Assembly: GCA_965207065.1 (NCBI GenBank)
Contig: OZ242260.1
Location: forward strand, 1,760,001-1,824,000
From: a bacterium
GTDB taxonomy: Bacteria; UBA8248
Direction of reading: 5' to 3'
Length of the DNA: 64,000 nucleotides
In this document: one piece after another, positions 6,117 through 33,962 of the stretch
Layout of the letters: each line of letters opens with the position of its first letter
Position numbering within the stretch: the first letter of the stretch is position 1
Made by a program: the position numbers and the translations under genes
Notes under the pieces: generated by a model
The model's input: the letters and a program-made list of their open reading frames with translations, nothing else
Databases searched by the model: none
Told to the model about the DNA's origin: nothing

Positions 6117-6320
6117 CACTCCCCCCTTGAGGGTCGGTCTCCCTCGGGGAAGACCGACAGTGAACTGAGGGCGTAAGCCCGAAAGTGAACTGGTGGGGGG
6201 TATGATTCGGAATGGCAATAAAACGCATTTTACCCCCCACCGAATCGGCCTTCGCATAAATCGCTCGGCCTCTTCGTCGGTCTACCCGAGGAGGATAGAC
6301 CGACCCTCAAGGGGGGAGTG
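6117..6320. repeat. Palindromic cassette family A, copy 1 (variant with extra hairpins at both ends)
   Basis: Ends CACTCCCCCCTTGAGGG...CCCTCAAGGGGGGAGTG; internal GGTGGGGGG/CCCCCCACC stem. Confidence 0.9.
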
Positions 6321-6625
6321 AATTGTCCTTCTCCTTGGAATGCCCGATCCTCAAAGGGTCAATCCCGACCAAGGCGGGAGGGGTTGCTTTCCAGGCGAGA
6401 GGGTCGCCCCCTTTGCCGTGTTCCGTCAGGGACCGCTCACGAGGGGTTGTTGACGAAATCGTTAAATGCTGACAGGGGGTGTTTGTGTATGTAGCGCTCC
6501 CTTCTTGGGAGCGCTACATACATGCGTCCCACATGCCACAATCGGTCGGGTCGCATATTATGCGACCCCTACAACAGAAAAGGCGATGCGCCCCCGCCGG
6601 GCAGAGGAGGCTTTGCTTTTTCTTG

Positions 6626-6659
6626 CCCCCCTGACAAGGGGGGGTAGGGGGGGTTGCTT
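6626..6659 (+). repeat. Repeat family B (CCCCCTGACAAGGGGGGGTAGGGGGGGTTGCT)
   Basis: Near-identical copies at 9150-9180 (reverse), 9268-9298 and 11051-11083; partial at 10996; variant at ~37272-37300. Confidence 0.88.
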
Positions 6660-6690
6660 TTTAAGCCTGCAGAGGGAGCGCGCTGAATTT

Positions 6691-6853
6691 CACTCCCCCC
6701 TTGAGGGGGAGTCGATGAAGCCGAGCGGTTTGTGCGAAGGCTGAATCGGTGGGGGGTGAATCGCGTTTTATCGCCACTCCGGGTTATACCCCCCACCGAA
6801 TCGCTTTCGGGCTTACGCCCTCAGCTCTTCGACTCCCCCTCAAGGGGGGAGTG
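6691..6853. repeat. Palindromic cassette family A, copy 2 (163 bp)
   Basis: 25-bp perfect terminal IR CACTCCCCCCTTGAGGGGGAGTCGA; reverse complement of 33705-33867 with two differences by eye. Confidence 0.95.
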
Positions 6854-7094
6854 GTTGGTTGGCGTTCTGCAAGGGGATTGCGTAATCTTCTCCCTCCCCG
6901 GTCGGCTCCATAGCCAAATCACGAAATCAGGAATCTCTCAAAATCCCTTTATTAAAACTTACCCCATAACCCTTAATAACGAATTCCCTTATGAAGCGTT
7001 CGCGCAATATAACTGCAAAACGCACACTCTTATGAAGTTTTTGCTGTTAAGTCTTAATAGCGCTGTTTCTTATGAAACTTCGAGCCATACGCCC

Positions 7095-7973
7095 CTAGTA
7101 CCGATCCGGCACGAACGTCTGCTCGCTCAGGGGAGGGCGCACGTAGGCCTTGGAATCACGCCTGGGGGGGAGTTCGATGGGCGAGGGCGTCAGGTCCTTG
7201 TAGGGGATGAGGGAGAGCAGGTGGCTGATGCAGTTGAGCCGCGCGCGGCGCTTCGAGTCCGCGTCCACCACGTACCAGGGCGCCTGCTTGATGTCGGTGT
7301 AGGCGAACATCTCGTCCTTCGCCCTGGAATACTCCACCCAGCGGGTGCGCGATTCGAGGTCCATCGGCGAGAGCTTCCAGCGCCGCGTGCGGTCTTGCAG
7401 GCGCGCCTGAAAGCGGCGTTCCTGTTCCTCGTCGCTCACCGAGAACCAGTATTTGATGAGGACGATCCCCGAGCGCACGAGCATCCGCTCGAACGTGGGG
7501 CATGAGTAGAGAAACTCGCGGTATTCCTCCTCGGTGCAGAACCCCATCACCCGCTCCACGCCCGCGCGGTTGTACCAGGAGCGGTCCAGGAGCACCATCT
7601 CGCCCGCGGCGGGAAGGTGGGCCGCGTAGCGCTGGAAGTACCACTGCGTCTGCTCGCGCTCGGTGGGCGCGGCGAGCGCCACGACACGGCACACCCTCGG
7701 GTTGAGTCTCAGCGTGATGCGCTTGATGACGCCGCCCTTGCCGGCCGCGTCCCGCCCCTCGAATATGACGATCACTTTCAGGCCCTGGTCCTTTATCCAC
7801 TCCTGGAGCTTTACGAGCTCTTCCTGGAGCCTCAAGAGTTCGGCCTCATACATCTTTTTGGGCAGCTTCTGGCGCGGGGCTTTCTCGGCGTCTCCCGCCC
7901 GGGTGTAGGCGAGGGCGCTCTCGTCTTGTGATTGATCGGTTTGGGGTGTCGTCTCTTCGCTCATCTCGGTCAT
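7095..7973 (-). CDS. ppk2: Polyphosphate kinase 2
   Basis: IFEGRDAAGKGG (Walker A), DRSWYNRAGVERVMGFC, WKLSPMD; start overlaps the upstream stop (ATGA). Confidence 0.95.
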   Translation of the reverse strand: MTEMSEETTPQTDQSQDESALAYTRAGDAEKAPRQKLPKKMYEAELLRLQEELVKLQEWIKDQGLKVIVIFEGRDAAGKGGVIKRITLRLNPRVCRVVALAAPTEREQTQWYFQRYAAHLPAAGEMVLLDRSWYNRAGVERVMGFCTEEEYREFLYSCPTFERMLVRSGIVLIKYWFSVSDEEQERRFQARLQDRTRRWKLSPMDLESRTRWVEYSRAKDEMFAYTDIKQAPWYVVDADSKRRARLNCISHLLSLIPYKDLTPSPIELPPRRDSKAYVRPPLSEQTFVPDRY

Positions 7974-9137: not shown

Positions 9138-9149
9138 TCCCTCTTCGGA

Positions 9150-9298
9150 AGCAACCCCCCCTACCCCCCCTTGTCAGGGTCAAAACCGACCGAAGAGGGA
9201 GGTTTTGCGAGCCGATGCGTTTCCCGCCAATGGCTTATGCAAACGCTCGTTCCTCACTCGCGTTTGACCCCTGACAAGGGGGGGTAGGGGGGGTTGGT
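9150..9298. repeat. Inverted pair of family B repeats around a ~90 bp spacer
   Basis: GCAACCCCCCCTACCCCCCCTTGTCAGGG ... CCCCTGACAAGGGGGGGTAGGGGGGGTTG. Confidence 0.85.
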
Positions 9299-9506
9299 TT
9301 TGTAGCTGTCCCGCAGGTCGCGACCTGTCCCTGCGGCGGCGTCTTTCAATATTTTTTCCATTCAGATTCCCCCCGCAAAAAACGAGACATTGCCCACCGG
9401 AATATTGCTTGGTACTATTTTCGTTATGGGATGGCGTCCGCCGCCCGCGCCAATGGGACTCCATCATGCCGCCTGCATCGTAGTACGGGAAAGGGGGGTA
9501 GATGCG

Positions 9507-10953: not shown

Positions 10954-11170
10954 GGGGCTGTTGAAAAAGCCTTAGCCAAGGGAATTTTTTTCTTGCCCCC
11001 TGTCAAGGGGGCGTTTCTTTCACCCCCTTATCGGGGGGGCTCCGCCTTTACCCCCCTGACAAGGGGGGGTAGGGGGGGTTGCTTTTCCAGTCGAGAGGAG
11101 CGTCCCTGCTACCCCCTGAAAAGGAACCCGCATTCGTTACATTCTGGATTCCGGCATGCGCCGGAATGAC
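10954..11170. repeat. Repeat mosaic: MITE-like end, family B units and a CTGGATTCCGGCATGCGCCGGAATGAC palindrome
   Basis: GGGGCTGTTGAAAAAGCC at 10954; family B at 11051-11083; palindrome at 11144-11170. Confidence 0.75.
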
Positions 11171-14556: not shown

Positions 14557-14586
14557 TGTAGGGACAGGTCGCGACCTGTCCCTACG
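14557..14586. repeat. GTAG-type REP palindrome
   Basis: GTAGGGACAGGTCGCGACCTGTCCCTAC; related copies at ~9313, ~15083 and ~20433-20497. Confidence 0.8.
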
Positions 14587-14588
14587 GG

Positions 14589-20229: not shown

Positions 20230-20411
20230 CACTCCCCCTTGAGGGGGAGTCGATGAGCTAAGGGCGTAGCCCGCAAGCGAGTCGGTGGGGGGTATAATTC
20301 GAATTGTGTCACAATTCAGGACACACCCCCCACCCAGTCAGCCTTCACCTGTCGGTTCGGCTTCCTCGTCGGGCTTTCCCCTCGGAAAGATCGACCCTCA
20401 CGGGGGGAGTG
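20230..20411. repeat. Palindromic cassette family A, copy 3 (extra hairpin at right end)
   Basis: CACTCCCCCTTGAGGGGGAGTCGA ... CCCTCACGGGGGGAGTG. Confidence 0.88.
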
Positions 20412-20432
20412 GTTTTAGAAACTGCGTTCTTC

Positions 20433-20498: not shown

Positions 20499-20646
20499 AG
20501 ACCCCCTCCTCAGTCGAGTTTGACCCAACAACAAAACCCCTTCCGGCTCATACCGGAAGGGGCCGATCCAGTGCTGCGGGATGTTCAGGTGCAAAAACCC
20601 TGTTATGCGGAGGGACGCGCGGGGTCGATTTCCACTCACTAGTCCC

Positions 20647-20892: not shown

Positions 20893-21086
20893 CGCTGTTT
20901 CCTTTTTCGGCGGCGATGACGTCTGATTGTAGGATTGCTTTGCTGAACGTCCTGCTTGGTTGAATTGATGTATCCCTCCTCATGACGAAATATAGGTCTT
21001 GCGCGGCGAAAGCGCCATATTTTTTTCGGGGGAAAACCGTAAGGCGCCTGACGGTATACGCTGCGAATGACGGATTCATCTATTTC

Positions 21087-21268
21087 GTAGGGACAGGCCC
21101 CCGTGCCTGTCCTGGTCCTTTCCGCCCCCGAATGGACAACTACGGGGGGTTGTCCCTACGGCCAATCATGCCAGAGTCCGTATATCATCAGGGCGAACAC
21201 ATAGGTTCTCCCCTACGAAACCTTGGCGCATTGATGCCTCCGTAGGGGCGGACCTGTGTGTTCGCCCG
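21087..21268. repeat. Cluster of four GTAG-type REP palindromes (REPIN-like)
   Basis: GTAGGGACAGGCCCCCGTGCCTGTCC, GGACAACTACGGGGGGTTGTCCCTAC, GGGCGAACACATAGGTTCTCCCCTAC, GTAGGGGCGGACCTGTGTGTTCGCCC. Confidence 0.85.
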
Positions 21269-21406
21269 CACTTTGTGCTCAAAATTCTTTTCTCTCATCA
21301 TTCGGCAGCCCCTCCCTCCTCGGTCAGGGCTGACCCTTTTGACCTCGCACCCCCCTCTCTGTACACTCCCGCGCGTTTGTTCATGGTTCATTCAGGAGCG
21401 TAATAC

Positions 21407-22462
21407 GTGAAGATAGGCATCATCGGCCCCGCCGCCAGCGGCAAGACGACCCTGTTCAACGCGCTCACGGGCGGCGCGGCCTCCACGGGTGGATATGGCG
21501 CCGCGCGCGTGAACATCGGCGCGGCGGCGGTGGCGGACGCGCGGGTGGACGCCCTGAGCGGGGTCTTCAATCCGAAAAAGACGACATACGCGGGCGTCAA
21601 TTTCGTGGACGCGGGCGTGGGAGACGGGGGCGCTGCGAAGAGCGGCGAGGCCATCCCGCAGGCGCTGGAGGGTGCGGATGCGCTGCTTGTCGTCGTGCGC
21701 GCATTCGAGGACGCGGGCGTTCCCCATCCCAGGGAAAGCATCGACCCCGCGCGCGATCTGGCCGACGTTCGCTTCGACCTGATGCTGCGCGACTTGTCGG
21801 TCGTAGAGCGCCGCATGGAGCGGCTTGCGAAGCTGGTGCGCGTCAAGAAAGACGCGGCGGAAGCAGCGGAGTTCGCCCTGCTGGGCCGAATCCGCGAGGT
21901 GCTCGAAGAGGGCCGACCTGTCCGTTCTTTGGATATGAGTGAGGAGGAAACGCGTATCATTAAAGGGTTCGGGTTTCTCTCCGCCAAGCCGCTCCTGGTT
22001 GTGGTGAACGTCGGCGAGGATCAACTGGGAGAGGCGGACGCGTTCGCCAGACTGAAAGGCGAGACGCCCGTCGCCCTCGCCGCGCGTCTGGAGGAAGAAC
22101 TCGCGCAGTTGCCCGGTGAGGAGCAGGCGGAGTTTCTGGCGGATTACGACCTCGAATCCTCAGCGCTCGACAAGGTGGTTCAGGCGTCGTTCGATCTGCT
22201 CAATCTCAGGTGTTTCTTCACCGTGGGGGAGGATGAGGTGCGCTCCTGGCCGGTCCGCGCGGGCACGGTCGCGCTCCACGCGGCGGGGACGATTCACTCC
22301 GATCTCGAGCGCGGCTTCATTCGCGCGGAGGTGATCTCATATCCCGACTTCATGGCGGCGGGTTCGCTCTCTGCCGCGCGGGACAGGGGAACCTTGAGAC
22401 TGGAAGGCAAGGACTACGTCGTCAAGGACGGCGACATCTTCCACGTGCGCTTCAACGTGTAG
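21407..22462 (+). CDS. ychF: Obg-family ATPase YchF (somewhat divergent G motifs)
   Basis: GPAASGKTTLFNAL, FFTVGEDEVRSW, IHSDLERGFIRAEV, RLEGKDYVVKDGD..RFNV. Confidence 0.9.
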   Translation: MKIGIIGPAASGKTTLFNALTGGAASTGGYGAARVNIGAAAVADARVDALSGVFNPKKTTYAGVNFVDAGVGDGGAAKSGEAIPQALEGADALLVVVRAFEDAGVPHPRESIDPARDLADVRFDLMLRDLSVVERRMERLAKLVRVKKDAAEAAEFALLGRIREVLEEGRPVRSLDMSEEETRIIKGFGFLSAKPLLVVVNVGEDQLGEADAFARLKGETPVALAARLEEELAQLPGEEQAEFLADYDLESSALDKVVQASFDLLNLRCFFTVGEDEVRSWPVRAGTVALHAAGTIHSDLERGFIRAEVISYPDFMAAGSLSAARDRGTLRLEGKDYVVKDGDIFHVRFNV

Positions 22463-22466
22463 TGTT

Positions 22467-23558
22467 TCAGGCTTGTCCGATAGCGGCGAGTATCCTCTCT
22501 CTCGCCTTCCGGTGCGCCTCACACCCGATAACCTCGAGCATCTCCGCGCGCCAGTTCGGCCGGCAGTAGCTCTCCTTCAATCTGCGAATCCGGTCCGATG
22601 AGGCCGCCTCCTGTTCGGGGGGTAGGTCCCTATCTCTGATGGCCCCTGCGATGGCGTCGCAGGCGCTTTCCTGCGCCTCTTCCGAATGACAGATGAGGGC
22701 GATGTCGGCCCCGGCGAGGATGCTTTGAAGGGCGGCCTCTGCGGCGTCGTCTATCGCGCCCATGTCCAGGTCATCCGTGATCGCGACGCCCCGGAAACCG
22801 AGTTCCCCGCGCAATAGTTCTTGAAGAAAGACGTGAGAGAGGCTCGCGGGCGCGGCTTCGTCTATCAGTTGAAAGTCCGCGTGGGCGACCATGACGCAGG
22901 CGGGCGGTGCGCGGCGGATAAGGTGCCGGAAGGGCATCAGTTCACGCGCCCGAAGGTCTTCGAGCGTGAGGCGGGAGGTCGGCAGTTCGTCGTGGGGGTC
23001 GGGGGTCATGTCGCCGATGCCGGGGAAATGCTTGGCGCAGGCGGCGACGCCTTCCTCCTGAAGGCCGGTGGCAGCGGCCGCGCCCATCAGGCCGACGACT
23101 TCGGCAGTCTCCCCAAAGGCGCGGTCGCCGATGACGGCGCATTCGGGGTTCGTGAGTATGTCCACGGCGGGTGCGAAGTTAAGGTTCACGCCGACCACTT
23201 CGAGTTCCGTCCCCGTGACCTTGGCGGCTTCCCTTGCGAGAGCGGGGTCGCCCGCGTCCCCGAAACCCCGCGCCGCCGGGAAGGTGGTGAAGTCACCAGA
23301 GAGCCTGCTCACGCGCCCGCCCTCCTGATCGATTCCCACGAGCAGGGGCGCTTCGAGCGGGGAGGCGAGTGCGGCAGTTTGCAAGGATGCGATGAGCGAG
23401 GCGGTCTGGCGGGCGGATCCGATGTTCCGCTGGAAGAAGATGACGCCGCCGATTCTGCCCGCGCGGACGCGCTGGATGAGCGAGGGCGGCGCTTCGGTTC
23501 CCTCGAAACCGGCCATGATGTGCTGACCGGCCCGGACTTCGGGCGCCTCTTCGTTCAT
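22467..23558 (-). CDS. nagZ: Beta-N-acetylhexosaminidase (GH3)
   Basis: IDQEGGRVSR, KHFPGIGDMTPDPH, ITDDLDMGA. Confidence 0.88.
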   Translation of the reverse strand: MNEEAPEVRAGQHIMAGFEGTEAPPSLIQRVRAGRIGGVIFFQRNIGSARQTASLIASLQTAALASPLEAPLLVGIDQEGGRVSRLSGDFTTFPAARGFGDAGDPALAREAAKVTGTELEVVGVNLNFAPAVDILTNPECAVIGDRAFGETAEVVGLMGAAAATGLQEEGVAACAKHFPGIGDMTPDPHDELPTSRLTLEDLRARELMPFRHLIRRAPPACVMVAHADFQLIDEAAPASLSHVFLQELLRGELGFRGVAITDDLDMGAIDDAAEAALQSILAGADIALICHSEEAQESACDAIAGAIRDRDLPPEQEAASSDRIRRLKESYCRPNWRAEMLEVIGCEAHRKARERILAAIGQA

Positions 23559-23565
23559 GCGCGCC

Positions 23566-24258
23566 CTAGCCCTCGCGCATCCGCGTGATGACGAAAGACT
23601 CCGCTACCGGAAAACCGGCCGCGCGGCCCGCGTCTTCTAATCGGTGGCGCGTGCGTTTCTCGAACGCTTTCGGATTCTTGATCTGGCACTTGTGCGCGCA
23701 TACCGCGCGGACTTTCACGTCGAAGGTCTCCGTTATATCCACGTAGAAGTTGGGTACGCGCGTATTGATAAAGAGGAGGTTGTTCGTGTGGTGCGCGCCG
23801 ATGCCGGCGTAGGTGAGTTCGGGCAGGAAATGGTGATCCCGCGCGTAGACCACCGCCTTGAACGTGGCGTGGCCGATGGCCTGGTGGTCGGGGTGCTGGT
23901 AGTAGGTGCGCCAGGGGTCGTGGGTCAGGATGGTATCTGGCCTGAAGTGGCGGATCAGGAAGGCGATCTGGTTCCTGAACGCGCGCGTGTCCTCGAGTTC
24001 CCCGTCGCGGTGGCGCAGGAAAAGGGTCTCCGCAACGCCCAGTATGCGGGAGGCTTCGAGCTGTTCCGCCTCGCGGATCTTGGCGAGGTCGAAGGGGCTG
24101 ACCTCGTCCTTCGTGCCCTTGTCCCCGTTCGTGCAGACGACCGTGCGAACGGTCGCGCCCTCCCGCGTCCAGCGGGCGATGCTCCCTCCCGAGGATAGTT
24201 CCGCATCGTCGGGGTGGGCGACGACGACGAGTATGTTTCTGAATTCCGTGTGACTCAC
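23566..24258 (-). CDS. PIG-L family N-acetylglucosamine deacetylase (MshB/BshB-like)
   Basis: VAHPDDAE and HPDH zinc motifs. Confidence 0.9.
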   Translation of the reverse strand: MSHTEFRNILVVVAHPDDAELSSGGSIARWTREGATVRTVVCTNGDKGTKDEVSPFDLAKIREAEQLEASRILGVAETLFLRHRDGELEDTRAFRNQIAFLIRHFRPDTILTHDPWRTYYQHPDHQAIGHATFKAVVYARDHHFLPELTYAGIGAHHTNNLLFINTRVPNFYVDITETFDVKVRAVCAHKCQIKNPKAFEKRTRHRLEDAGRAAGFPVAESFVITRMREG

Positions 24259-24276
24259 TTGCGTTTCCTTCCGTGT

Positions 24277-25581
24277 CTATGATGCGTGTGGTGAGGTAAG
24301 CGCCGCTCCCTGTCGCAGCCGCGCCCAGATGTCGAGTTCCGCCTCCGCGATCCGCCTCCAGGCGAATAATTCCGCCCATTCAAGCGTCGCGCGATGGGGG
24401 CGCTCAGGAGGGTTTTCGAGCATCGCAATCATCTTCTTTGCGTAGGCTGTTATGTCACCGTCCGCGATGAGATGTCCGCTCACACCCTCGCTTACCGCCT
24501 GGGAGAGGCCGCCCACGTCGAAGGCGAGCGTCGGCGCCCCGCACGCGGCCGCCTCGATAGCCGTCATGCCGAAGCTCTCATAGCGCGAGGGCAGCGCGAA
24601 GATGTCGGCTGCGGAATAATAAAGAGGTAAATCCTCCTGAGGCTTCGCGCCTGAGAAGATCATGGCGTCCGCCACGCCGAGCCCCTGCGCCAATTCTTCC
24701 AGACACGCGACTTCGGCTCCCTGTGCGGGAGAGGCGAAATCTCCTGCGTGATAACTCCTCTCGACTTTTTGCGCGCCCTCTCTTATTTCACCGCCTAAGT
24801 GAAGGAGGCGCGCATCCAGCTCCGGTCGTTCCCGGCGCATGACGGCGAAGGCCTCGACGAGGCGGTCGAGACCCTTCACGCGCTCGATGCGGCCCACGCT
24901 CAGGATGTGTGCGAGGTCAGGCTTCAGGCCCAGCCGCGCGTGCGCCTCGGATTTGGGATGCGGCCGGAAGGTCTCCAGGTCCACACCGCAGGGGACGACG
25001 TGGACTTCCGTCGCGCCCGATATCTCGTCAATCGCGCGCGCCTCGGTGGGCGATGAGGTGAGAACCGCATCCGCCGCTTGTGCGAGCGCAGGCTCTCTCT
25101 CGAGCCGCACGTCTGACTCATGTCTGGTGTCTGCAGGCAGGGCGTCGTTTTTGAGCGCGGCCAGGGTGTGGAAGCGAACCGCGAGGGGAACGCCCCATGC
25201 TCTGGCCAGAATCTCGCCGGCAAGGCCCGAGAGCCAGTAATGCGCGGAAACGCCGTCATAACGCGCTCCGTCATTCTCCGCGAAGGCGAGAATCCCCTCG
25301 GCGAAGGCGTCCGCCCATTCGACTTGCGCGTCCTTGTCGAGTCTTTCCTTTGGTCCCGCCTCGACGCGGATGAGGCGCGCGCCGTCGGCGATTGTGACCT
25401 GGCGCTCGCTTGAGACCGATTCCAGTCGGGTGAAGATATCCGCTCCGACGCCCAGGCTTGCGAGCGCCTTCGCGACCTCGCGGGCGTAGACGTTCATGCC
25501 GCCCGTGAAGTCCCCTCCCAGGGGAGCGAGGGGGTCGGTGTGCATCGAGAGGATCGCGAGACGGGTGGGCTCGGCAATCAT
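24277..25581 (-). CDS. GT4 glycosyltransferase, MshA-like (D-inositol-3-phosphate glycosyltransferase-like)
   Basis: LSMHTDPL..LGG..GGMNVY, HYWLSG, FHTLAALKN, PSRYESFGM. Confidence 0.85.
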   Translation of the reverse strand: MIAEPTRLAILSMHTDPLAPLGGDFTGGMNVYAREVAKALASLGVGADIFTRLESVSSERQVTIADGARLIRVEAGPKERLDKDAQVEWADAFAEGILAFAENDGARYDGVSAHYWLSGLAGEILARAWGVPLAVRFHTLAALKNDALPADTRHESDVRLEREPALAQAADAVLTSSPTEARAIDEISGATEVHVVPCGVDLETFRPHPKSEAHARLGLKPDLAHILSVGRIERVKGLDRLVEAFAVMRRERPELDARLLHLGGEIREGAQKVERSYHAGDFASPAQGAEVACLEELAQGLGVADAMIFSGAKPQEDLPLYYSAADIFALPSRYESFGMTAIEAAACGAPTLAFDVGGLSQAVSEGVSGHLIADGDITAYAKKMIAMLENPPERPHRATLEWAELFAWRRIAEAELDIWARLRQGAALTSPHAS

Positions 25582-26597
25582 CGCGCGCTCCTCTCGATTC
25601 GCACGCGCATCACGCGTTCATCCTGCGCGCCGTAGCGGTATTTGTAGGCCTCATCGCCCCTCAGCATGTCGAAGGATGCCCGCCCCGCCTGAATCGCCTC
25701 TTCCACGTTGTGGGCGAGCAGCACCAGGCCCGCGCTCAGTTCGTGCTCCACCGGGTCGAAGCCCGAGTTGTATAGATAAATCCTGTCTCCGTAATCGAAC
25801 GATAGGTTGGCTGCGACGGGATGGCCGTCCACGCGCATGACGCTCAGGTCCAGACAGCCGAGCGCGAGCATCGCCCGGGTCACGTCACCGAAGAAGGCTC
25901 TTCTGTCGGCGTTCCAGAAGTCCGCCTTTTCTTGCTGGCTCAGCGCGTGGAGGGTGATGAAGTCTTCGAGATCGGCGGCCAGTGCGTCCGCCGATTCCGT
26001 CCGTTCATACTCCAGCCCCGCCTCCATGTTGGCCTTTCGAATCTTTCGCCTCAAGTCACGCTCGTCCCGGGGAGCGAGCATCCCGGTGTATTCATCCCAC
26101 GAATCGGGAAGCGCGATGACGGGGCAGACTTCTTCCTCGGATATCGAGGCCGCCCCGCCCGTCAACTCCTCTATCGCCGCGACCGTGGGGGAGGTTTCGG
26201 GAATCCCGCGCAGGGAGAGTTCGCGCCAGGCGGGCGCGTCCGCTTCTTCGAGGGCGGCGAGAACCGCCCGCCAGCAGGCCAGGTGCGCTCCGTCGGCGGC
26301 GATGATGTCGAGGTAGTCCGAGAGGTCGTCCCCTCCCGTCAGGCGCAGGCGTCCGCCCTCGCTCAGGACGAAGGGCGCCACGCCGGAGAGTGCGCCGTTC
26401 TCATCGCGCAGGGCGTAGACGCGCAGTTCGCCCGCGCCGAAGTTCCGCCACCACGCGGCGTGCCACGCGGGGTCGTAAAAGGGATGCGCGTGGGCGGAGC
26501 GCGCCATCAGCGCGCGCCACTCGGCTTCCAGGCCTGTGAACGCCTCGGGCGAGGTGAAGGCTTCTAGCTGCAATGAAGAACATGAACTTTGCGACAT
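25578..26597 (-). CDS. GNAT, CelD/BcsL-like (Acetyltransf_6-type)
   Basis: PFYDPAWHAAWW, SDYLDII, YLYNSGFD, FDMLRGDEAYKYRYGA. Confidence 0.85.
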   Translation of the reverse strand: MSQSSCSSLQLEAFTSPEAFTGLEAEWRALMARSAHAHPFYDPAWHAAWWRNFGAGELRVYALRDENGALSGVAPFVLSEGGRLRLTGGDDLSDYLDIIAADGAHLACWRAVLAALEEADAPAWRELSLRGIPETSPTVAAIEELTGGAASISEEEVCPVIALPDSWDEYTGMLAPRDERDLRRKIRKANMEAGLEYERTESADALAADLEDFITLHALSQQEKADFWNADRRAFFGDVTRAMLALGCLDLSVMRVDGHPVAANLSFDYGDRIYLYNSGFDPVEHELSAGLVLLAHNVEEAIQAGRASFDMLRGDEAYKYRYGAQDERVMRVRIERSAR

Positions 26598-26648
26598 CGG
26601 GATTCCTTCGCATCCATCGCGCCTGTGGGCGCGCGTTGATTTTGTCCG

Positions 26649-27242
26649 CTACGCGAACTCCAGCCCGACAAACGTGGCCGTCGGGTGTCCCTCCAGGGGG
26701 TCCGAAAGGTTCGAGCGGGTGAAGACGAAAAACCGGTTGTGGTAGAGCGTCTGAAACTGGATGAAGCCCGCCTTGTCCACCCCGCGCCTCGAAGCCATGT
26801 TCTTCGCTTCCACGAAAATGAGAGAGCGCGTAAGACCCAGCTTCTCGCCGTATTCGAGCGCGCGCCTGAGCACGGATGGATAGAGATTTTTCCCCCGCCA
26901 GGGCTCCAGCGTGAAGGCGTCGTAGAGGTAGATCTCCTTGGCCTCGGGTTTCACGGCCTTGTCGATTTCCTCCACGCCCACCACGCCGCGCGCGCCCCAG
27001 ATGTAGCTCACCGCCTTGCCGTCTTCCAGCGCGACGAAACACTTCTCGCCCCGCTCGAAGCGCCTCCCCGTCAGGCTCTCGCCCTGCACGTCGGTTATCA
27101 GGTGGCGATTCGGCGACGCCTCGTCGAGGATGATGTGCTCCACCTCGATTCTCGCATCGCTCGGCGGTATTTCGGTGGGATGCGGAAAATCGTACAGACA
27201 AAGCTCCACCGACGTGAGAAATGTCGTTTTCAGGAAATCCAA
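26649..27242 (-). CDS. GNAT family N-acetyltransferase
   Basis: YLYDAFTLEPWRGKNL (AcCoA loop); NMASRRGVDKAGF. Confidence 0.82.
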   Translation of the reverse strand: MDFLKTTFLTSVELCLYDFPHPTEIPPSDARIEVEHIILDEASPNRHLITDVQGESLTGRRFERGEKCFVALEDGKAVSYIWGARGVVGVEEIDKAVKPEAKEIYLYDAFTLEPWRGKNLYPSVLRRALEYGEKLGLTRSLIFVEAKNMASRRGVDKAGFIQFQTLYHNRFFVFTRSNLSDPLEGHPTATFVGLEFA

Positions 27243-27257
27243 CGGGGAATGACTCCT

Positions 27258-28280
27258 TTATTTGAGAAGCGCGTCGAGGAAATGTCCGAGCGAAGCTTGG
27301 AGAGGCCCGAAATCCCTCCTCTTTTCGAAATGCGCCCGCACCATCCTGGCGGTATGCGGAATGCTCGCCAGATAGCGCTCCGCTCCGCGCACCGCCTTTT
27401 GATAGGCGAAAGTGCCGATGGCCTTCAGGTTTCTCTGTATGGCGGTAGCCCGCAGGGCGCGTTCGTATTCTTCTTTATCCGAGAAGAGGCGGTGGCCGCA
27501 AGTCTCCCAGTAGCGGGCGGTGAGGTATTCCCGCGCCGAATCTCCCAGGTCGACGTAGCTGTCGAAGGCCAAAGACACCAGATCGTAAGTGGCGGGCCCC
27601 ATGCGCGCGTCCTGAAAATCGATGGCGATCACCGCCTCATCCAGGACCATCAGGTTCCTGCTGTGGTAGTCACGGTGCGTAAGGCGAAAGGGAATCCGGC
27701 AGATCTCTTCGCACAGTTTCCGGAACGCCGCATTAAGAATACGCTCATCCGTTTCCATCCCCAGGAGGCTCTCGAAAGCGTATTTGCGCGTGTGGTGAAG
27801 CTCGTTCGTGAAAAATTGAGCGTCGAATCGCCGCGTGAGCGCAATCCTCTCGCCAGCGGGCGCGCTCGGAGCCTCCTGCATGGCGGCCATCATGTCCATG
27901 GCGGCGTCGTAATGCGGCCCCGCTTCCTCCCATCCGCCGCCCCGCCATGTGTCTTCGAGCGATTCATCGCCGCAGTCTTCCAGCAGAATGACGCCCGCCT
28001 CCTCATCCACCGCGTAAATTTCTGGAACTCTGACGCCGATTTCCTTCAAATGCGCCTGCACGTCAATGAAGGGAAGGGTCTCTTTTACAAACGGCTCCGG
28101 CATAACCATGCCGATAGAACTCGGTCTCGCGCCATCTGCATGGGTGAGCCGGGCGTAGTCGCGCGTCGAGGCGTCACCCGCAAGGGGCGTGAGAGAAGAC
28201 ACGACGCCGCCGAAATGCGCACGCGCCAGGGTTTTCAGGCGCTCATGGGCTCGTGTCTGCTCCGCGAGGCTCGCCTTCAT
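27258..28280 (-). CDS. amgK: Anomeric MurNAc/GlcNAc kinase-like phosphotransferase (APH fold)
   Basis: LAGDASTRDYAR, LLEDCGD, THRDYHSRNLM, IDFQDARMGP, QRNLKAIGTF; ATGA overlap with upstream gene. Confidence 0.8.
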   Translation of the reverse strand: MKASLAEQTRAHERLKTLARAHFGGVVSSLTPLAGDASTRDYARLTHADGARPSSIGMVMPEPFVKETLPFIDVQAHLKEIGVRVPEIYAVDEEAGVILLEDCGDESLEDTWRGGGWEEAGPHYDAAMDMMAAMQEAPSAPAGERIALTRRFDAQFFTNELHHTRKYAFESLLGMETDERILNAAFRKLCEEICRIPFRLTHRDYHSRNLMVLDEAVIAIDFQDARMGPATYDLVSLAFDSYVDLGDSAREYLTARYWETCGHRLFSDKEEYERALRATAIQRNLKAIGTFAYQKAVRGAERYLASIPHTARMVRAHFEKRRDFGPLQASLGHFLDALLK

Positions 28281-29128
28281 GCGGGACTCGACTTGATCTG
28301 TGAGGCGAGGGACTTCATGGCGCGCGCTGCGTCTGCGAGCGTATTGGCGTAAGGTTCCTCTTTTCTTCTGAGTTCGAGCACGAGGGTTCCCGAATAGCGG
28401 TGGGCGTCGAGCGTCGTGAAGAAAGAGGGCCACTCGAACGCGCCCTCGCCGGGGATAAGATGCGCGTCGTTTCGCCCGTCGTTGTCGTGCAGGTGCGTAG
28501 CGGCGCAAAGGGGCGCCAGCCGCTCGACCCCGCTTCGCGTGTTTTCTCCCTCGGTGATGAGGGCGTGGCCGGTGTCGATGCAGATATTGAGTCTCGGATG
28601 ATCGATGCGTTCGACGAACGCCGCGAGAGGCTCCGCGCGGCCCAGGGCGGAGGGTATGTTCTCGAGTGTCAAAACCGCGTCGGTTTCCTCGGCCACGGGC
28701 AGGAGCCGCTCGATGCTATCTTCCAGCGCCTCGTAGGTATCCCCATCTCCCGCCTTGCCCGGCGCGCTCGGATGGATGACGACGATGCGCGCGCCCAGGG
28801 GGCGGAATGCGCGAAGAGCCTGAATCGTTTTCTCGATGGCCGCCTCCCGCGCATCCTTATCGGCCGCGGCGAGGGAGAGCCAGCGCCCCGCTCTCGCCTC
28901 GCTCAGATCGGCGTAAAAAGGCGCATGGAAAGAAGGCGCTTCGAGAGAGAGGTCCGCCAGCCAGTCTTGGAGGGTTTTGAGCTTCGCGATATCGCTCACG
29001 TCGAAATGGGGCGTCATCGCCCACAACTCGATTTTCCGGAAACCGGCGTCGGCCGCCTCTTTCAGGTGTTCGAAGCGGAGTGGCTCATAGGCGAACAGAT
29101 GCGCCGAGAGGGCGTAGTCGAGTCTCAA
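28277..29128 (-). CDS. Sugar-phosphate isomerase/epimerase (xylose isomerase-like TIM barrel)
   Basis: SFHAPF, LTLENIP, IDTGHA, THLHDNDG..DAHLIPGEG, VLE. Confidence 0.88.
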   Translation of the reverse strand: MRLDYALSAHLFAYEPLRFEHLKEAADAGFRKIELWAMTPHFDVSDIAKLKTLQDWLADLSLEAPSFHAPFYADLSEARAGRWLSLAAADKDAREAAIEKTIQALRAFRPLGARIVVIHPSAPGKAGDGDTYEALEDSIERLLPVAEETDAVLTLENIPSALGRAEPLAAFVERIDHPRLNICIDTGHALITEGENTRSGVERLAPLCAATHLHDNDGRNDAHLIPGEGAFEWPSFFTTLDAHRYSGTLVLELRRKEEPYANTLADAARAMKSLASQIKSSPA

Positions 29129-29223
29129 AACCTCATCCTTGGTGAGCGGGGGTCGTAGCGCGCGCTTGATGGGGGGCGATTATACGCTCTTCAAGATGAG
29201 AGCGGCAACGCGGGGCCGGATGC

Positions 29224-29647
29224 GGGGTTGTTAATAAAGTTATCCTCATGGGTGAACTACCTGTGGCGCATTCAACGCCCTTTCCCGTACTCTTCATCAC
29301 GAGTAGGCGCGCTTGCACGCCGTATCGAGGGAGCGCCTCTTCGACAGGCAAATGTCAGGCTCCTTCGATACGCCGCCTTCGGCGGCTACTCAGGATGAGG
29401 CAGATATGTGGGTATGCAAGACGAAGATTTGACGCGACAGATGAAAGAGCAAGAATCACTCCCCCCTTGAGGGGGAGTCGATGAAGCCGAGCGGTTTATG
29501 CGAAGGCTGAATCGGTGGGGGGAGCTTTTGGGTGGCATATCCCCCCACCGATTCGCTTGCGGGCTTACGCCCTTACCTCATCGACTCCCCCTCAAGGGGG
29601 GAGTGAAATTCAGCGCGCTCCTTCTGTGGACTTTTTCAACAACCCCC
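29224..29647. mobile_element. MITE-like unit enclosing a CTCATC/GATGAG-type palindrome pair and cassette A copy 4
   Basis: GGGGTTGTTAATAAAGTT ... GACTTTTTCAACAACCCC ends; CCTTCGATACGCCGCCTTCGGCGGCTACTCAGGATGAG at ~29362-29399. Confidence 0.55.
29457..29605. repeat. Palindromic cassette family A, copy 4 (149 bp, shorter loop)
   Basis: Same 25-bp terminal IR; arms shared with copies 2 and 5. Confidence 0.93.
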
Positions 29648-29818
29648 CTCAAGGGGAGAGTGATTCTTCCTCCTTCATCAGCACCCAGTGGCCCCCAAGA
29701 GGGGAGAACCAATTCATAAGCGCATGCAGGTTGAGAAATTCATTCCCTGTGTTTTGGGGTGACTTCTTCAACAAACCCATGCGCGCGGCTCACAAGACGA
29801 AAAATCGCCTCACACCTG

Positions 29819-29864
29819 TTGACAAAGGGGCGTGCGGGCTGGTAGTGGTCATACCATCTGACCA
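29819..29864 (+). promoter_or_regulatory. Promoter and FadR/GntR-type operator upstream of the GntR gene
   Basis: TTGACA at 29819-29824; TGGTCATACCATCTGACCA (29846-29864) contains the TGGTNNNACCA palindrome typical of FadR-subfamily sites. Confidence 0.7.
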
Positions 29865-29954
29865 GGACTTCCGGTCTCGTACAAAAAAAATGACAGTCCC
29901 AGCGTGGTTTTCCCTCATCGCTCGGGATGGTTTGCGTCACCAGGAGGCGGTTTC

Positions 29955-30686
29955 TTGCTTAAGCCGGTGAGAAAAACGAGGCTTTACGAAGACGTGGTGG
30001 AGCAGATTCAGCAGCTCATCCGCAAGCGAAAGCTCACGCCCGGAGACAGGCTGCCGTCTGAGCGTGAACTCGCGGCGACGCTCGGAATCGGCAGGCCTTC
30101 GGTGCGCGAAGCCCTGCGCGCGCTCGACACCACGGGCCTGATCGAAGTCAGAAGCGGCCAGGGCGCATATCTCCGCAACCTCACGGTCGACCCCTATCTC
30201 GCCACGGTGCGCGAGAGCCTGGCGTTTCTTCTCGACGTGAAGGAAGACACCCTGCTCGAACTCTGGGAGGTGCGGCAGGGGCTGGAAGAACAGATTGCGC
30301 GCCTCACGGCCGAGCGCAGAACCGGAGAGCAGATAGAGCGCCTGCGCGGCCACACCGAGGAGATGCGAAAGCGCATCGACAAGCCCGAAGCCTTCGTGCG
30401 CGCGGGCGTGGCCTGGCACCGCGCGCTTTGCGAAGCGGCGGAAAACGCCGTTTTGCGGACGGTGTGGGAGGCTATCGCGGGTCTCATCGAAAAGAGCCAG
30501 CGCCGGATCATCGGAACCCCCGGCCAGCCGGACGAGGCGCTGCGCCAGCACGAGAAGCTACTTGCGGCGGTCGAAGCGGGCGATCCGGAAGAAGCCGCGC
30601 TCGCCATGCGCGAGCACATGGCGGCCGAGGGCGCGCGGCTCAAAGAGGCGCTGGCCGTATCGCGAAACGGAGCAATGCGCGTCTGA
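29955..30686 (+). CDS. GntR family (FadR subfamily) transcriptional regulator
   Basis: PGDRLPSERELAATLGIGRPSVREAL wHTH plus FCD domain; AGGAGG RBS before TTG. Confidence 0.93.
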   Translation: MLKPVRKTRLYEDVVEQIQQLIRKRKLTPGDRLPSERELAATLGIGRPSVREALRALDTTGLIEVRSGQGAYLRNLTVDPYLATVRESLAFLLDVKEDTLLELWEVRQGLEEQIARLTAERRTGEQIERLRGHTEEMRKRIDKPEAFVRAGVAWHRALCEAAENAVLRTVWEAIAGLIEKSQRRIIGTPGQPDEALRQHEKLLAAVEAGDPEEAALAMREHMAAEGARLKEALAVSRNGAMRV

Positions 30687-30772
30687 GAAAGAGCGGGCGC
30701 GTTTTTTTGTTGGGCTATTTTGACCTCATTTTTTGAACGCTTCACACCCATTTCCGTATAGGAGGAATCTTG

Positions 30773-32122
30773 ATGGTGGAAATGAGCAAACAAGGCATGC
30801 CGATGGACTTTCTGCAGAAAGAGCACTACCAGTCCCCCCGGCGCGTCTTCAGCCAGACGGGCAGCGATTGGCAGCGCCGCGTGGACTTCGAGCAGATGCG
30901 CAAGGACAGGCTCGCCCGCGCCAAGGCGATGATGGAGAAGCACGACATGGACGCCATCATCATGTACAAGGGCGAGAACATCCGCTACACCGCGTCGGTC
31001 TTCCAGGGCAACTGGAAGAACAACATCTTCATCCGCTACGCCGTGCTCTGCCGCGGCGCGGAAACGCCCGTTCTCTTCGAGACCGCCGGATCGGACTACG
31101 AGTGCGCACGGATCGACGCGCCTTGGCTCGAGGGCAACATCCGTCCCGCCATCACCTGGAAGTGGTCCGAGACCGCCGAGCAGATGATGGTGAACCGCAT
31201 GGCGGATTCGGTCATCGACGTTCTCAAGGAGAACAACATCCCGCTGAACGGGCGGATCGGCATCGACATCATGGACATGCAGGCCTACAGCGCCTTCACC
31301 GAGAAGGGCGTGAACCTGGTGAACGCGTGGCCGGCGATGAGCGAGGCGCGCGTCATCAAGACGCCCGAGGAGATCGAGTGTCTCAAGATCAGCTCGACCA
31401 TCGGCGACACCTGCATGTGGAAGATCAGGAACGAATGGCTCAAGCCCGGCATCCGCGAGTGCGACCTCACCGCGTGGGTCAACAATCTGCTCTATGAAGA
31501 GGGCTTCGACTTCGTCTACGACATCATCGTCGCCTCGGGCGGAAACACGAGCCCCTACCGCCGCTGGCACACCGACAAGATGATCCGGGACGGAGACCTC
31601 GTCGTCGTCGACATCAACGCCATCGGCCCCGGCGGCTACTTCGTCGACTACGTGCGCTGCTTCAAGTGCGGCGGCGGCTGGACGAAGAAGGAAAAAGAGC
31701 TCTACAGGGAGGTCTACGACACGATGTACGCGGGCATGAGCCAGCTCGTGCCGGGCAAGACCTCCAAGGACGTGGCCGAGCAGTTCCCCGTCTACGCCGA
31801 TGACAAGTACGGCACGGTGACGCTCCAGCAGTTCGCGCACTCCATCGGCCTGGACTTGTATGAGGGCATGTGGATCAGCCGGGCATACAGCCTCGATTAT
31901 CCGGTGGAAATCAAGGAGAACATGTACTTCGCCATCGAGACGTTCGCAGGACACCCGGGGCTGCCCCAGACGGTGCGCCTGGAAGAGAACGTCCTCGTCG
32001 GCCCCGACGGCCCCGTCGTCTTCACGGGTTCCTCGCACTACGACGAGTGCATCGAGGATTCGCCGTATTTCGACTTCTCGGCGAAATCGCGCGGCGAGCC
32101 TCGCTTCGAGCTTCCCGCGTAG
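30773..32122 (+). CDS. M24B family metallohydrolase (Xaa-Pro peptidase/creatinase/DddP-like fold)
   Basis: Metal ligands in VVVDIN..YFVDYVR, AHSIG, AIET and RLEENV; creatinase-like N-domain. Confidence 0.88.
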   Translation: MVEMSKQGMPMDFLQKEHYQSPRRVFSQTGSDWQRRVDFEQMRKDRLARAKAMMEKHDMDAIIMYKGENIRYTASVFQGNWKNNIFIRYAVLCRGAETPVLFETAGSDYECARIDAPWLEGNIRPAITWKWSETAEQMMVNRMADSVIDVLKENNIPLNGRIGIDIMDMQAYSAFTEKGVNLVNAWPAMSEARVIKTPEEIECLKISSTIGDTCMWKIRNEWLKPGIRECDLTAWVNNLLYEEGFDFVYDIIVASGGNTSPYRRWHTDKMIRDGDLVVVDINAIGPGGYFVDYVRCFKCGGGWTKKEKELYREVYDTMYAGMSQLVPGKTSKDVAEQFPVYADDKYGTVTLQQFAHSIGLDLYEGMWISRAYSLDYPVEIKENMYFAIETFAGHPGLPQTVRLEENVLVGPDGPVVFTGSSHYDECIEDSPYFDFSAKSRGEPRFELPA

Positions 32123-32130
32123 CGGTTGTT

Positions 32131-32180
32131 GCTTCCCGTCCGTGTCCCTGCCGCCTGGGACGCGGGCGGGAGCGTTTTTT
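32131..32180 (+). terminator. Intrinsic terminator
   Basis: CCCGTCCGTGTCCC/GGGACGCGGGCGGG stem followed by T6. Confidence 0.7.
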
Positions 32181-32237
32181 CATATTCGCAGTGCAGGGGA
32201 AATCGCCTCCCGAAAAGGCGAATAGGAGAATCATGAG

Positions 32238-33458
32238 ATGAGCGAACCCTGGAACAACGATATGTGGTTCACCAGCCCGTGGAACTTCGAGGGCGAGGTG
32301 ACCTCCAATATCAATTTCGATCCCAACCCCAAGATCCACGACGTGACGCTCCGTGACGGTGAGCAGCAGGCGGGCGTCATGTTCAACAAGGACGAGAAGA
32401 TAAGAATCGCCGAAGCCCTCGCCGAGACGGGCGTGCACCGAATCGAGGCTGGTATGCCTGTGGTCTCGCCGTCGGACGAAGCGGCGATCCGCGAGATCGT
32501 CAAGCGTCTCGAAGGAACGGACACCGAGGTGTTCAGCTTCGCGCGCTGCATGGCGGACGACGTGAAGCGCTCCGCCGACACGGGCGTCAAGGGCGTCGTC
32601 ATGGAAGTGCCCAGTTCCACGCACATGATCGAGCGCGCCTACAAGTGGGAGCTCGACAAGGCCATCGACACCTCCGTCAAGGCCACGCAGGTGGCGAAGG
32701 AATGCGGCCTCTACACCGTGTTCTTCCCCATCGACTTCTCCCGTGCCCCGCTGGACTGGGTGCTGGGCCTGCTCAAGAAGGTGGCGACCGAGGGCCACAT
32801 GGACGCGCTGGCGATCGTCGACACGTTCGGCGTGCTCAGCCCGCACACCGTGCCCTACGTCATCAAGAAGATGCGCGAAGTATTCCCGGACGAGCCCTTC
32901 GAACCCCATTTCCACGACGACTACGGAATGGGCGTCGCCAATACGCTGATGGCGATGGCAGAGGGCTGCCAGGTGGCCCAGACTTCCGTGAGCGGCATCG
33001 GCGAACGCGCGGGCAACGCGGCGTATGAGGAACTCGCCCTGGCCATGCTCACCATGTACGACGTGGATATGGGCCTCAAGACGGAGAAGTTCACCGAGGT
33101 CTCGCGTCTCGTGCAGGAGTGCGGGCGCATCAGCTTAGCACCCAACCGCTGCGTCGTGGGCGATAACCTCTACGACATCGAGAGCGGCATCATCGTGAGC
33201 TGGCTCAAGAACTGCGAGAAGGACTTCCCGACCGAACTCGTGCCCTTCCGCGCCGGCCTCGTCGGCCAGAGCGAACCCGAGCCCGTCATCGGCAAGGGCA
33301 GCGGCATCGATTCCATCAATTTGTTCCTGGAGCAGTTGGGCATCACGGCGTCCGAGGAAGAAAAGATGGCGCTCCTGATGGACGTGAAGGAAAAATCCTT
33401 GGAGCTACATCGCCTGCTCACGATGGACGAGTTCAAGGAACTGGCGGGAGCGAATTAG
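32238..33458 (+). CDS. DRE-TIM acyl-CoA condensing enzyme (isopropylmalate/homocitrate/citramalate synthase-like)
   Basis: HDVTLRDGEQQAG, HFHDDYGMG, GIGERAGN; no C-terminal regulatory domain. Confidence 0.88.
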   Translation: MSEPWNNDMWFTSPWNFEGEVTSNINFDPNPKIHDVTLRDGEQQAGVMFNKDEKIRIAEALAETGVHRIEAGMPVVSPSDEAAIREIVKRLEGTDTEVFSFARCMADDVKRSADTGVKGVVMEVPSSTHMIERAYKWELDKAIDTSVKATQVAKECGLYTVFFPIDFSRAPLDWVLGLLKKVATEGHMDALAIVDTFGVLSPHTVPYVIKKMREVFPDEPFEPHFHDDYGMGVANTLMAMAEGCQVAQTSVSGIGERAGNAAYEELALAMLTMYDVDMGLKTEKFTEVSRLVQECGRISLAPNRCVVGDNLYDIESGIIVSWLKNCEKDFPTELVPFRAGLVGQSEPEPVIGKGSGIDSINLFLEQLGITASEEEKMALLMDVKEKSLELHRLLTMDEFKELAGAN

Positions 33459-33568
33459 TTTTCACCCCGCATCGCTCGGGGGCGGATGAGCTAGGCCGCG
33501 CCGGTTCGCCGGCCGGACCCGGCGGCCTCAGGCTCTCCGCCCCGATGCGCGGGTTGAAGATTGTACGG

Positions 33569-33601
33569 AAAGGGCGGCTCGAAATGGGCCGCCCTTTTTT
33601 T
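33569..33601 (+). terminator. Intrinsic terminator
   Basis: AAAGGGCGGCTC-GAAAT-GGGCCGCCCTTTTTTT. Confidence 0.85.
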
Positions 33602-33639
33602 GCGTGAACGCCGGGGGGGCGAAGGATCTCCCGCTATTC

Positions 33640-33962
33640 GGGGTTTTGAAAAAGACCTTATTTCATGATTCGGCGCATAGAGCCGACCGGGAAAAAGGAG
33701 ATTTCACTCCCCCCTTGAGGGGGAGTCGAAGAGCTGAGGGCGTAAGCCCGAAAGCGATTCGGTGGGGGGTATAACTCGGAGTGGCGATAAAACGCGATTC
33801 ACCCCCCACCGATTCAGCCTTCGCATAAACCGCTCGGCTTCATCGACTCCCCCTCAAGGGGGGAGTGGTTGGTTGGCGCTCTGCAAGGAAGAAGTAAAGT
33901 TTCATCCCTCCCTGGTCGGCTTCATGCTTGGAATCACGAAACCGGAACTTTTCAACAACCCC
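33640..33962. mobile_element. MITE-like unit with ~55-bp imperfect terminal inverted arms enclosing cassette A copy 5
   Basis: Left GGGGTTTTGAAAAAGACC..TTTCATGATTC..GAGCCGACCGGGA; right TCCCTGGTCGGCTTC..GAATCACGAAA..AACTTTTCAACAACCCC. Confidence 0.7.
33705..33867. repeat. Palindromic cassette family A, copy 5 (163 bp)
   Basis: Reverse complement of 6691-6853 with two differences. Confidence 0.95.

Follow-up and report, generated by a model that had tools for sequence, protein, structure and literature searches.

Cassette A, a hairpin repeat at the centre of miniature elements of an IS1182-family insertion sequence, and a possible origin of its scrambled orientation and flanks

The 64,000-nt stretch analysed here (the window, G000:C1:1760001-1824000) comes from a genome of 4.48 Mb assembled as a single contig and 96% complete, and holds five copies of a palindromic intergenic repeat, cassette A, whose core lies in either orientation between exchangeable flanks. 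We show that cassette A is the palindromic centre of MITEs (miniature inverted-repeat transposable elements) of a resident insertion sequence (IS) of the IS1182 family, that units consisting of an arm, the cassette and a second arm transpose as wholes with 5-bp target duplications, and that the loop of the hairpin bounding the cassette is a favoured target of the IS itself, which enters it in either orientation with a 5-bp loop duplication. The scrambling of orientation and flanks, from which a first-pass annotation of the window had proposed a site-specific inversion or shuffling system, probably results from nesting of these hairpin-targeting MITEs together with ordinary recombination, and a dedicated invertase is not required. 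Comparisons were made with relatives carrying other G-numbers (G002, G011, G013, G014, G017 and others), one genome per species.

Cassette flanks as MITE arms and the hairpin as a target

Cassette A forms a long hairpin (120-205 bp) and is bounded on both sides by a 24-nt G/C-rich hairpin, CACT-C6-TTGA-G5-AGTG, in inverted copies; this short hairpin resembles a repetitive extragenic palindrome (REP) unit and is also found solo. A blastn search with a 163-nt copy as query located 64 core loci in G000, and a scan for the 17-nt end motif with at most two mismatches gave 177 copies, split 88 to 89 between the strands and grouped in 104 clusters. Of these clusters, 36 are simple convergent pairs with a distance of 132-191 bp and 50 are single motifs, while 15 carry one or two extra copies in the same orientation and only one is a divergent pair. 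With all copies turned into one orientation, the mosaic parts are the terminal unit, the end form, an alpha arm, a long or short central loop and a beta arm. The end form is either short, the end being the 24-nt hairpin, or long, with an extra stem-loop of 24-27 nt, and the two forms assort independently of the core. Outside the cassette, at least five recurrent types of flank, 20-100 bp in length, were distinguished, with starts reading AAATTCAGCGCGCTCC (F1), GTTGGTTGGCG (F2), AACTTCAAAAGCG (F3) and ATTCTTCTCTC (F4); the reverse complement of the F4 start is the flank that reads AAGAAT.

The outer ends of these flanks identify them as transposon arms. Nearly all flank types end in CTTTTTCAACA(A/G)CCCC, 8-96 nt out (median 50), and the ends of the composites read GGGGYTGTTGAAAAAG / CTTTTTCAACARCCCC, matching the terminal inverted repeats of the resident IS. 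A motif resembling this outer repeat (at most two mismatches) was present within 110 nt outward of 61 of the 104 core-adjoining ends, compared with 101 of 5000 random genome windows. The MITE units are non-coding and measure about 190-420 bp. Twelve loci were fetched from G017, and four of them (L061, L064, L066 and L071) were examined in detail. L071 holds a 322-bp unit made of outer repeat, F4 arm, cassette, F2 arm and outer repeat, with a duplication of CATTC, and the corresponding G000 site is uninterrupted; L061 and L064 hold cassette-bearing units with duplications of AGGCG and TATAA, opposite empty or divergent G000 sites. A 298-bp MITE of G014 that lacks the cassette has the same ends and is absent from G000. 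At the site spanning 29236-29814 of the window, G000, G017, G011 and G013 carry inserts that share the outer repeats and differ in contents, and G014 has no insert. The proposal of a dedicated inversion or shuffling system is therefore not supported, since the flanks are MITE arms with IS-like terminal repeats and whole units move with 5-bp target duplications.

The resident IS, about 1.54 kb long, was recognised through two copies lying between end motifs. G000 has six copies, all with open frames of 439-487 amino acids and with ends that read GGG(G/C)(T)CTGTTGAAAAAC. A 379-amino-acid part of the transposase scored 291.3 bits against NF033551, the NCBIfam model for IS1182 (cut-off 270), and the Pfam domains found were DUF772 and DDE_Tnp_1. 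Five of the six copies touch G/C hairpins, four of them with both hairpin halves and a duplication. More specifically, the copies at 442984 and 1980371 lie inside the cassette end hairpin with the loop sequence CTTGA duplicated over 5 bp, two others lie in the loops of other G/C hairpins with duplications of TTATC and CTTGT, the copy at 1142721 is bordered by a half hairpin on a single side, and the sixth copy occupies a non-hairpin site with a 5-bp duplication of ATGAT.

In other genomes, several cassette matches end at position 7-8 or 156-157 directly beside the IS. Among 14 IS copies of G014, G013, G011 and G002, picked for a truncated cassette alongside, 10 lie between both halves of the cassette hairpin with the duplication CTCAA/TTGAG and the IS in either orientation, and the remaining four either are one-sided or combine halves from different hairpins; without such selection, a lower bound is 6 of the 33 IS matches in G014. 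At locus L051 of G032, the end pattern used gave no IS-end pair. The suggestion that the terminal hairpin serves a trans-acting enzyme encoded elsewhere has thus found a concrete form, an IS1182-family element in the hairpin loop with a 5-bp duplication.

Two side observations concern the IS sites. At L048 (G002:C1:923900-926300) an IS lies between halves of two different cassette hairpins, with the loops inverted, an arrangement that would be the expected product of recombination between two IS copies and would provide another route for swapping flanks. The G000 copy at 963274, with its TTATC duplication, sits in the hairpin loop of a second, G-rich repeat family (…CCCCTGACAAGGGGGGGTAGGGGGGGTTGC…), whose 19-nt core occurs about 111 times in the genome and which is present in the window at 6623-6661, 9149-9186, 9263-9301 and 11048-11086.

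The distribution of the IS and of the cassette was compared in 41 genomes, 20 of which are cassette-positive. All 15 IS-positive genomes, two of them from another family of the class, are cassette-positive, and the 21 cassette-negative genomes yielded no IS at all. With the query used, five of the cassette-positive genomes yielded no match either; three of these assemblies are in 190-470 contigs (G003, G005, G021), one in 20 (G010) and one in 30 (G017). The IS-positive genome G032, from another family, has many exact 24-nt solo hairpins. At G032:C1:3226376-3227063 and 3757814-3758615 such exact copies are regularly spaced, about 330 and about 389 bp apart, which hints at a longer unit repeated in tandem.

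Cassette copies in the window

All five copies reported earlier were located, and every one sits between long open reading frames. The cassettes and the parts of the composite elements around them are as follows.

6051..6066, + strand: outer terminal inverted repeat of the composite MITE around copy 1, IS-like (GGGGCTGTTGGAAAAG); conservation with G014 ends immediately before it
6067-6116: arm with the AAGAAT end, after the outer repeat and before copy 1
6117..6320, - strand: cassette copy 1, with an extra stem at both ends (the long-stem end form), alpha arm at the right end
6655..6690, - strand: F1-type MITE arm (…GGAGCGCGCTGAATTT) abutting copy 2, outer repeat degenerate
6691..6853, + strand: cassette copy 2, the reference, alpha arm first, one long hairpin
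6854..6946, + strand: F2-type MITE arm (GTTGGTTGGCG…), ending in a degenerate outer repeat
20230..20411, - strand: cassette copy 3, diverged, with a short form at one end and a long form at the other
29224..29239, + strand: left outer IS-like repeat of a whole composite insert
29457..29605, + strand: cassette copy 4, short central loop, alpha arm first, perfect 29-nt terminal inverted repeats
29606..29662, + strand: F1 arm, whose outer repeat (29631-29646) passes without a gap into a half hairpin (29646-29662)
29763..29778, + strand: right outer IS-like repeat, partner of 29224-29239
33639..33704, + strand: outer repeat (33639-33654) and arm left of copy 5
33705..33867, - strand: cassette copy 5, reverse complement of copy 2 with 2 differences in 163 nt
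33868..33976, + strand: F2-type arm; its outer repeat (33947-33962) runs into a half hairpin (33960-33976)

The window has 10 occurrences of the 21-nt junction motif (at most three mismatches), with 0.00 expected from 100 shuffles, and the element ends form inverted repeats of 28-29 nt. As its alpha arm lies at the right end, the core of copy 1 is inverted relative to copy 2. Folded as single-stranded DNA, copy 2 gives one long hairpin with a dG of -59.2 kcal/mol and a z of -10.1 against shuffles, and it is identical to the orthologous G014 site over 163 of 163 positions, in the same orientation and between the same flanking genes. The G014 arm orthologous to 6655-6690 has kept an intact outer repeat.

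The descriptions of the flanks in the first-pass annotation were confirmed for the most part. Copies 2 and 5 are indeed reverse complements of each other (99% over 163 nt), and the arms that follow them on the + strand are homologous as described; these F2 arms, however, agree in 64 of 98 columns and have diverged much further than the cores. At 6691 the GGAGCGCGCTGAATTT flank lies next to one arm, at 29605 next to the opposite one, and the AAGAAT flank likewise meets different arms at 6117 and 29457.

Two junctions in the window show how flanks may come to be joined. At 29631-29662 and at 33947-33976 an outer repeat directly abuts a half hairpin followed by an arm, an arrangement found 16 times in G000. 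The first is the junction that would arise if one MITE had inserted into another's hairpin, and half-hairpin junctions in general, as well as the extra end motifs in the same orientation, are what such nesting would leave. The half hairpin at 33960-33976 and the sequence beyond it are conserved in G014.

No payload is apparent in the cassettes, because a consensus scan for promoters of the sigma-70 type found none inside the cores at 6117-6320, 6691-6853 and 33705-33867, and the cores are too short for a protein. An Rfam scan of the window returned no family at gathering score.

Further features lie outside these composites. Positions 22462-22483 (G000 1782462-1782483) are an insertion hot spot, empty in G000, filled by a 280-bp MITE lacking the cassette in G014 and by a 420-bp cassette-bearing composite in G017, and 37232-37424 is a MITE of about 190 bp with both IS-like outer repeats and no cassette A. 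A sigma-70-like site at 34057-34085 (TGGACT-17-TATCAT), outside the repeats, lies upstream of the gene starting at 34132 and is probably its real promoter; the stretch is conserved in G000, G014, G017, G011 and G013, not in G002. Positions 37583-39193 hold a 185-nt unit in three diverged direct copies (63-73% identical) as well as a 70-nt pair, probably repeated coding domains.

Orientation and re-assortment of the core

Genome-wide, flank type is largely independent of core orientation. When flanks were tabulated according to whether the alpha or the beta arm adjoins them at the 104 core-adjoining end motifs, the alpha/beta counts were 2/10 for F1, 11/8 for F2, 5/8 for F3, 11/7 for F4 and 2/1 for F5, and 39 of the 104 had a flank of no named type. 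F1 to F4 are each found beside either arm. The observation that started this analysis stands, because orientation is not fixed relative to the flanks across the genome. The further claim that all junctions fall at the terminal hairpin had to be given up: alpha and beta subtypes, two of each, were assigned by explicit signatures in 45 elements and occur in all four combinations (12, 6, 2 and 3 copies), so that alpha and beta arms also re-assort inside the core and junctions are not confined to its ends.

To compare orientation with arms, the 45 elements with both ends and both arms were taken pairwise (990 pairs, 70 nt per arm). Where both arms are at least 70% identical, 5 pairs are collinear and 4 flipped, and at 80% the counts are 2 and 2. 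The clearest sibling pair, 1742929/2148383, combines 98% identity in the core with 96% and 93% in the arms when these are matched crosswise; the breakpoints lie inside the terminal repeat, because a variant end base stays with the F2 arm. An orthologous locus gives the same picture: at G000 4193975 and its G014 counterpart the cores match at 122 of 124 positions as reverse complements and at 81 of 125 on the same strand, the left arm is conserved at 61 of 70 positions with the same outer boundary, and the right end form and right arm differ. Four cassette loci are common to G000 and G014. Those at 6691 and 2772682 are unchanged, that at 4193975 is flipped, and that at 4304712 keeps its orientation but differs in core subtype, in end forms and in the right arm. 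Core inversion relative to homologous flanks, as the first-pass annotation described it, is therefore seen in sibling copies and at one orthologous locus, and from sibling and orthologous copies alone we infer that cores do flip on an evolutionary scale.

Cores are also lost and exchanged. At 1847200-1847379 G000 has a core and G014 a solo hairpin between the same arms, with flanks about 97% identical. No paralog of this core exceeds 88% identity, and with an old core and flanks this similar the solo hairpin looks like a deletion in G014 and not like a recent insertion in G000. Nineteen pairs have cores with 95% identity or more; in 10 of them no arm is shared, in 7 one is, and in 2 both are. 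In six species of the genus, the spacers that correspond to 33460-34130 have almost no repeat content in common, and at the locus of copy 5 the core of G011 is of another subtype, in the other orientation and between other arms. Orthologous intergenic sites with such different sets of modules point to repeated colonisation.

Two simple schemes were tried and rejected. A flip in situ cannot be the sole process, as orthologous sites differ by whole modules, for example in G011 at the locus of copy 5. Insertion of a core into a solo hairpin by an ordinary 5-bp duplication would leave direct loops at the two ends, and the loops found there are inverted.

The account that we favour, and consider fairly probable, is that hairpin-targeting MITEs nest in each other and that ordinary recombination does the rest. 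A MITE or the IS would insert into the hairpin of another MITE in random orientation and deletion between the now-repeated hairpins would follow; recombination among copies through their identical 25-29-nt ends, whether by inversion, gene conversion or template switching during replication, would likewise scramble orientation and flanks. Alternatively, the same transposase might replace stem-loops in the manner of IS1272.

Several points weigh against this account. The step that flips a core is deduced from the comparison of copies and not from reads, and a specific enzyme could be involved in it, though there is no sign of one. Nesting and deletion alone do not explain the pair 1742929/2148383, in which the core alone is inverted and the arms on both sides are retained. 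The difference between a cassette and a solo hairpin involves no target duplication, the loops being inverted, so that the comparison does not show a core entering a hairpin by the ordinary 5-bp mode. The account also does not readily explain near-identical cores between unrelated arms. The co-occurrence of IS and cassette among related genomes is not independent evidence, and in five cassette-positive genomes no IS was matched. Finally, the 14 IS sites of the other genomes were selected for adjacency and therefore show the mode of insertion, not its frequency.

Some of these points would be met if the core with its two hairpins were itself a mobile unit, moved by the IS1182 transposase so as to replace a solo hairpin without duplication and in random orientation. 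We regard this as unlikely, though it is the best placed of the alternatives. It would agree with the 10 of 19 near-identical core pairs that lie between unrelated arms, with the lack of duplication at the filled site compared with its solo hairpin, with the abundance of solo hairpins, including exact 24-nt copies in a distant genome that carries the IS, and with the finding that the cassette itself, not the arms alone, co-occurs with the IS. IS1272 also replaces target stem-loops without duplication, according to the available portion of PMC5678879. However, the sole clean comparison of a filled site with a solo hairpin looks like a loss, the core there being old and without a close paralog, the resemblance of cassette ends to IS ends is weak (judged by eye, unscored), and the mosaic alpha/beta cores point to recombination and not to movement of whole units.

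In a broader form of the same idea, the cassette would be a substrate recognised by its structure, and either the IS1182 transposase or a host enzyme that processes hairpins would swap whole cassettes between hairpins, without duplication and in either orientation; this we put forward tentatively, as a doubtful extension. If true, every cassette would bring two fresh landing pads, making stem-loop-replacing transposition a self-amplifying exchange, and near-identical cores in unrelated arms, orientations close to 1:1 and solo hairpins, as empty sites and footprints, would all be explained.

That the 25-nt hairpin is acted upon by a dedicated site-specific recombinase or nuclease with its gene elsewhere, as in an invertible or shufflon-like system, is less likely still and in our judgement improbable. 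The near-equal numbers of the two orientations between homologous arms, the flipped orthologous locus and the position of the sibling breakpoints inside the terminal repeat would all be in keeping with such an enzyme. However, the orthologous sites differ by whole modules and not by orientation alone, the alpha/beta combinations place junctions outside the hairpin as well, and the swapping of flanks is already accounted for by MITE arms and nesting. The scanned cores of the window, in which no sigma-70-like promoter was found and which are too short for a protein, have no apparent payload. Beside the copies in the window no recombinase gene is present, as had been noted at first pass, the search having been confined to these neighbourhoods and not extended to every tyrosine and serine recombinase of the genome. 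It had further been suggested that the genome be searched for IS110 or RAYT (REP-associated tyrosine transposase) genes flanked by the repeat; neither was found, as every one of the five IS110 copies lies 15 kb or more from the nearest end motif and the genome has no RAYT.

The latter result also makes it very improbable that the hairpin doublets are REPINs, that is, REP doublets moved by a transposase of the Y1/HUH type. The architecture is suggestive, since an inverted doublet of a short palindrome forms a long hairpin here too, in dozens of intergenic copies and with solo units as well, but no Y1_Tnp (PF01797) match was obtained in G000 by a search that found the family in 6 of 14 known genomes used as a control. 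Among the genomes compared, 11 of the 20 with the cassette and 10 of the 21 without it have Y1 matches, which shows no association, and the unit starts with CACT and not with the GTAG or CGTC head of the REP superfamilies, as these are given in the accessible part of PMC3733652.

As a separate observation, a GTAG-headed REP palindrome (GTAGGGACAGG…CCTGTCCCTAC) is present at 14558-14585 of the window and is abundant in the genome, with 287 half-sites (at most one mismatch) and 31 full palindromes that match exactly; it often lies inside or beside MITE arms, though the genome has no RAYT or Y1_Tnp match.

That false orientations arose from palindromes joined wrongly in assembly is hardly credible. 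Long palindromes are hard to assemble, and public-run contigs do break inside every copy: this stretch was found in 24 runs, mostly labelled sponge metagenomes, among the Logan contigs, and the contigs of runs X19, X21, X22 and X24 over 19800-34300 end inside every cassette, record 7 of X19 stopping at 33730. Joints that these run contigs seem to show are accounted for by other repeat copies. However, copy 2 is matched at 163 of 163 positions, in the same orientation and between the same genes, in the independently assembled G014, and each orientation and every arm type is found again in several independent genomes.

Nesting of hairpin-targeting MITEs together with recombination gives a concrete and testable account in place of a hidden inversion or shuffling machine, which the evidence does not support. 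Because the IS and its MITEs use one G/C hairpin as a target and carry that hairpin themselves, elements would pile into each other and remodel intergenic regions fast. The natural series of filled, empty, flipped and solo-hairpin sites offers material for studying structure-directed transposition by DDE enzymes, a mechanism only proposed for IS1272. For the annotation of genomes associated with sponge metagenomes, the nesting account explains a large class of intergenic repeats and likely break points of assemblies.

Relation to known hairpin repeats and their transposons

A limited search of the literature on repeats and transposases of Nitrospinota and of sponge symbionts found no paper on this repeat family, and the comparison was made with systems known from other organisms. 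In plastids, small inversions are associated with hairpins, and in Escherichia coli inversion and template switching are mediated by inverted repeats; in both, short segments flanked by inverted repeats of 20-30 bp are flipped recurrently without a dedicated recombinase. Unlike in these cases, the orientation changes described here are read from sibling and orthologous copies only.

The BIMEs (bacterial interspersed mosaic elements) of enterobacteria and mosaics of the RIME type are intergenic arrays of palindromic units in either orientation, joined by a few linker modules. Cassette A and its arms likewise form mosaic arrays, but here the linkers end in transposon terminal repeats and whole units transpose, as the filled and empty sites show. 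REPINs with their RAYTs share with cassette A the inverted palindromic doublet, the long hairpin, the many intergenic copies and the solo units, as far as the accessible parts of PMC3116915 and PMC2817692 describe them. They differ in that the present genome has neither a RAYT nor an association with Y1 nor a GTAG/CGTC head, and in that its units lie inside DDE-type MITEs with 5-bp duplications.

A second group of systems uses palindromes as targets. IS1397 and ISKpn1 insert in REP loops. For ISPpu9 and ISPpu10 and for IS621, of the IS110 family, the portions available of PMC12288879, PMC11208160 and 10.64898/2026.03.19.712850 describe REPs as a landing pad. In all of these, as here, an extragenic palindrome is the landing pad for a transposase encoded elsewhere; unlike them, the present system has a transposase of another family and chemistry, a DDE enzyme of the IS1182 family and not one of the IS3 or IS110 type, and the target is carried by the element's own MITEs.

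The closest counterpart is IS1272/TnSha1, with other stem-loop-targeting elements of the IS1182 family (see also PMC4923244). IS1272, which belongs to that family, is directed to inverted repeats or stem-loops, and PMC5678879 considers, as a possibility, a pathway in which the loop alone is duplicated. The transposase family and the hairpin-directed insertion are the same, and the pathway discussed there matches the 5-bp loop duplication found here. In contrast to IS1272, for which that source describes replacement of the stem-loop without duplication, a strict 5-bp loop duplication is the rule here, and one hairpin sequence is strongly favoured. The present family also nests in itself, because its non-autonomous derivatives carry the target hairpin as an inverted pair around a palindromic core. 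In conclusion, the system is best read as working like the hairpin-targeting elements of the IS1182 family and their MITEs, resembling REPINs and BIMEs in architecture but having no RAYT.

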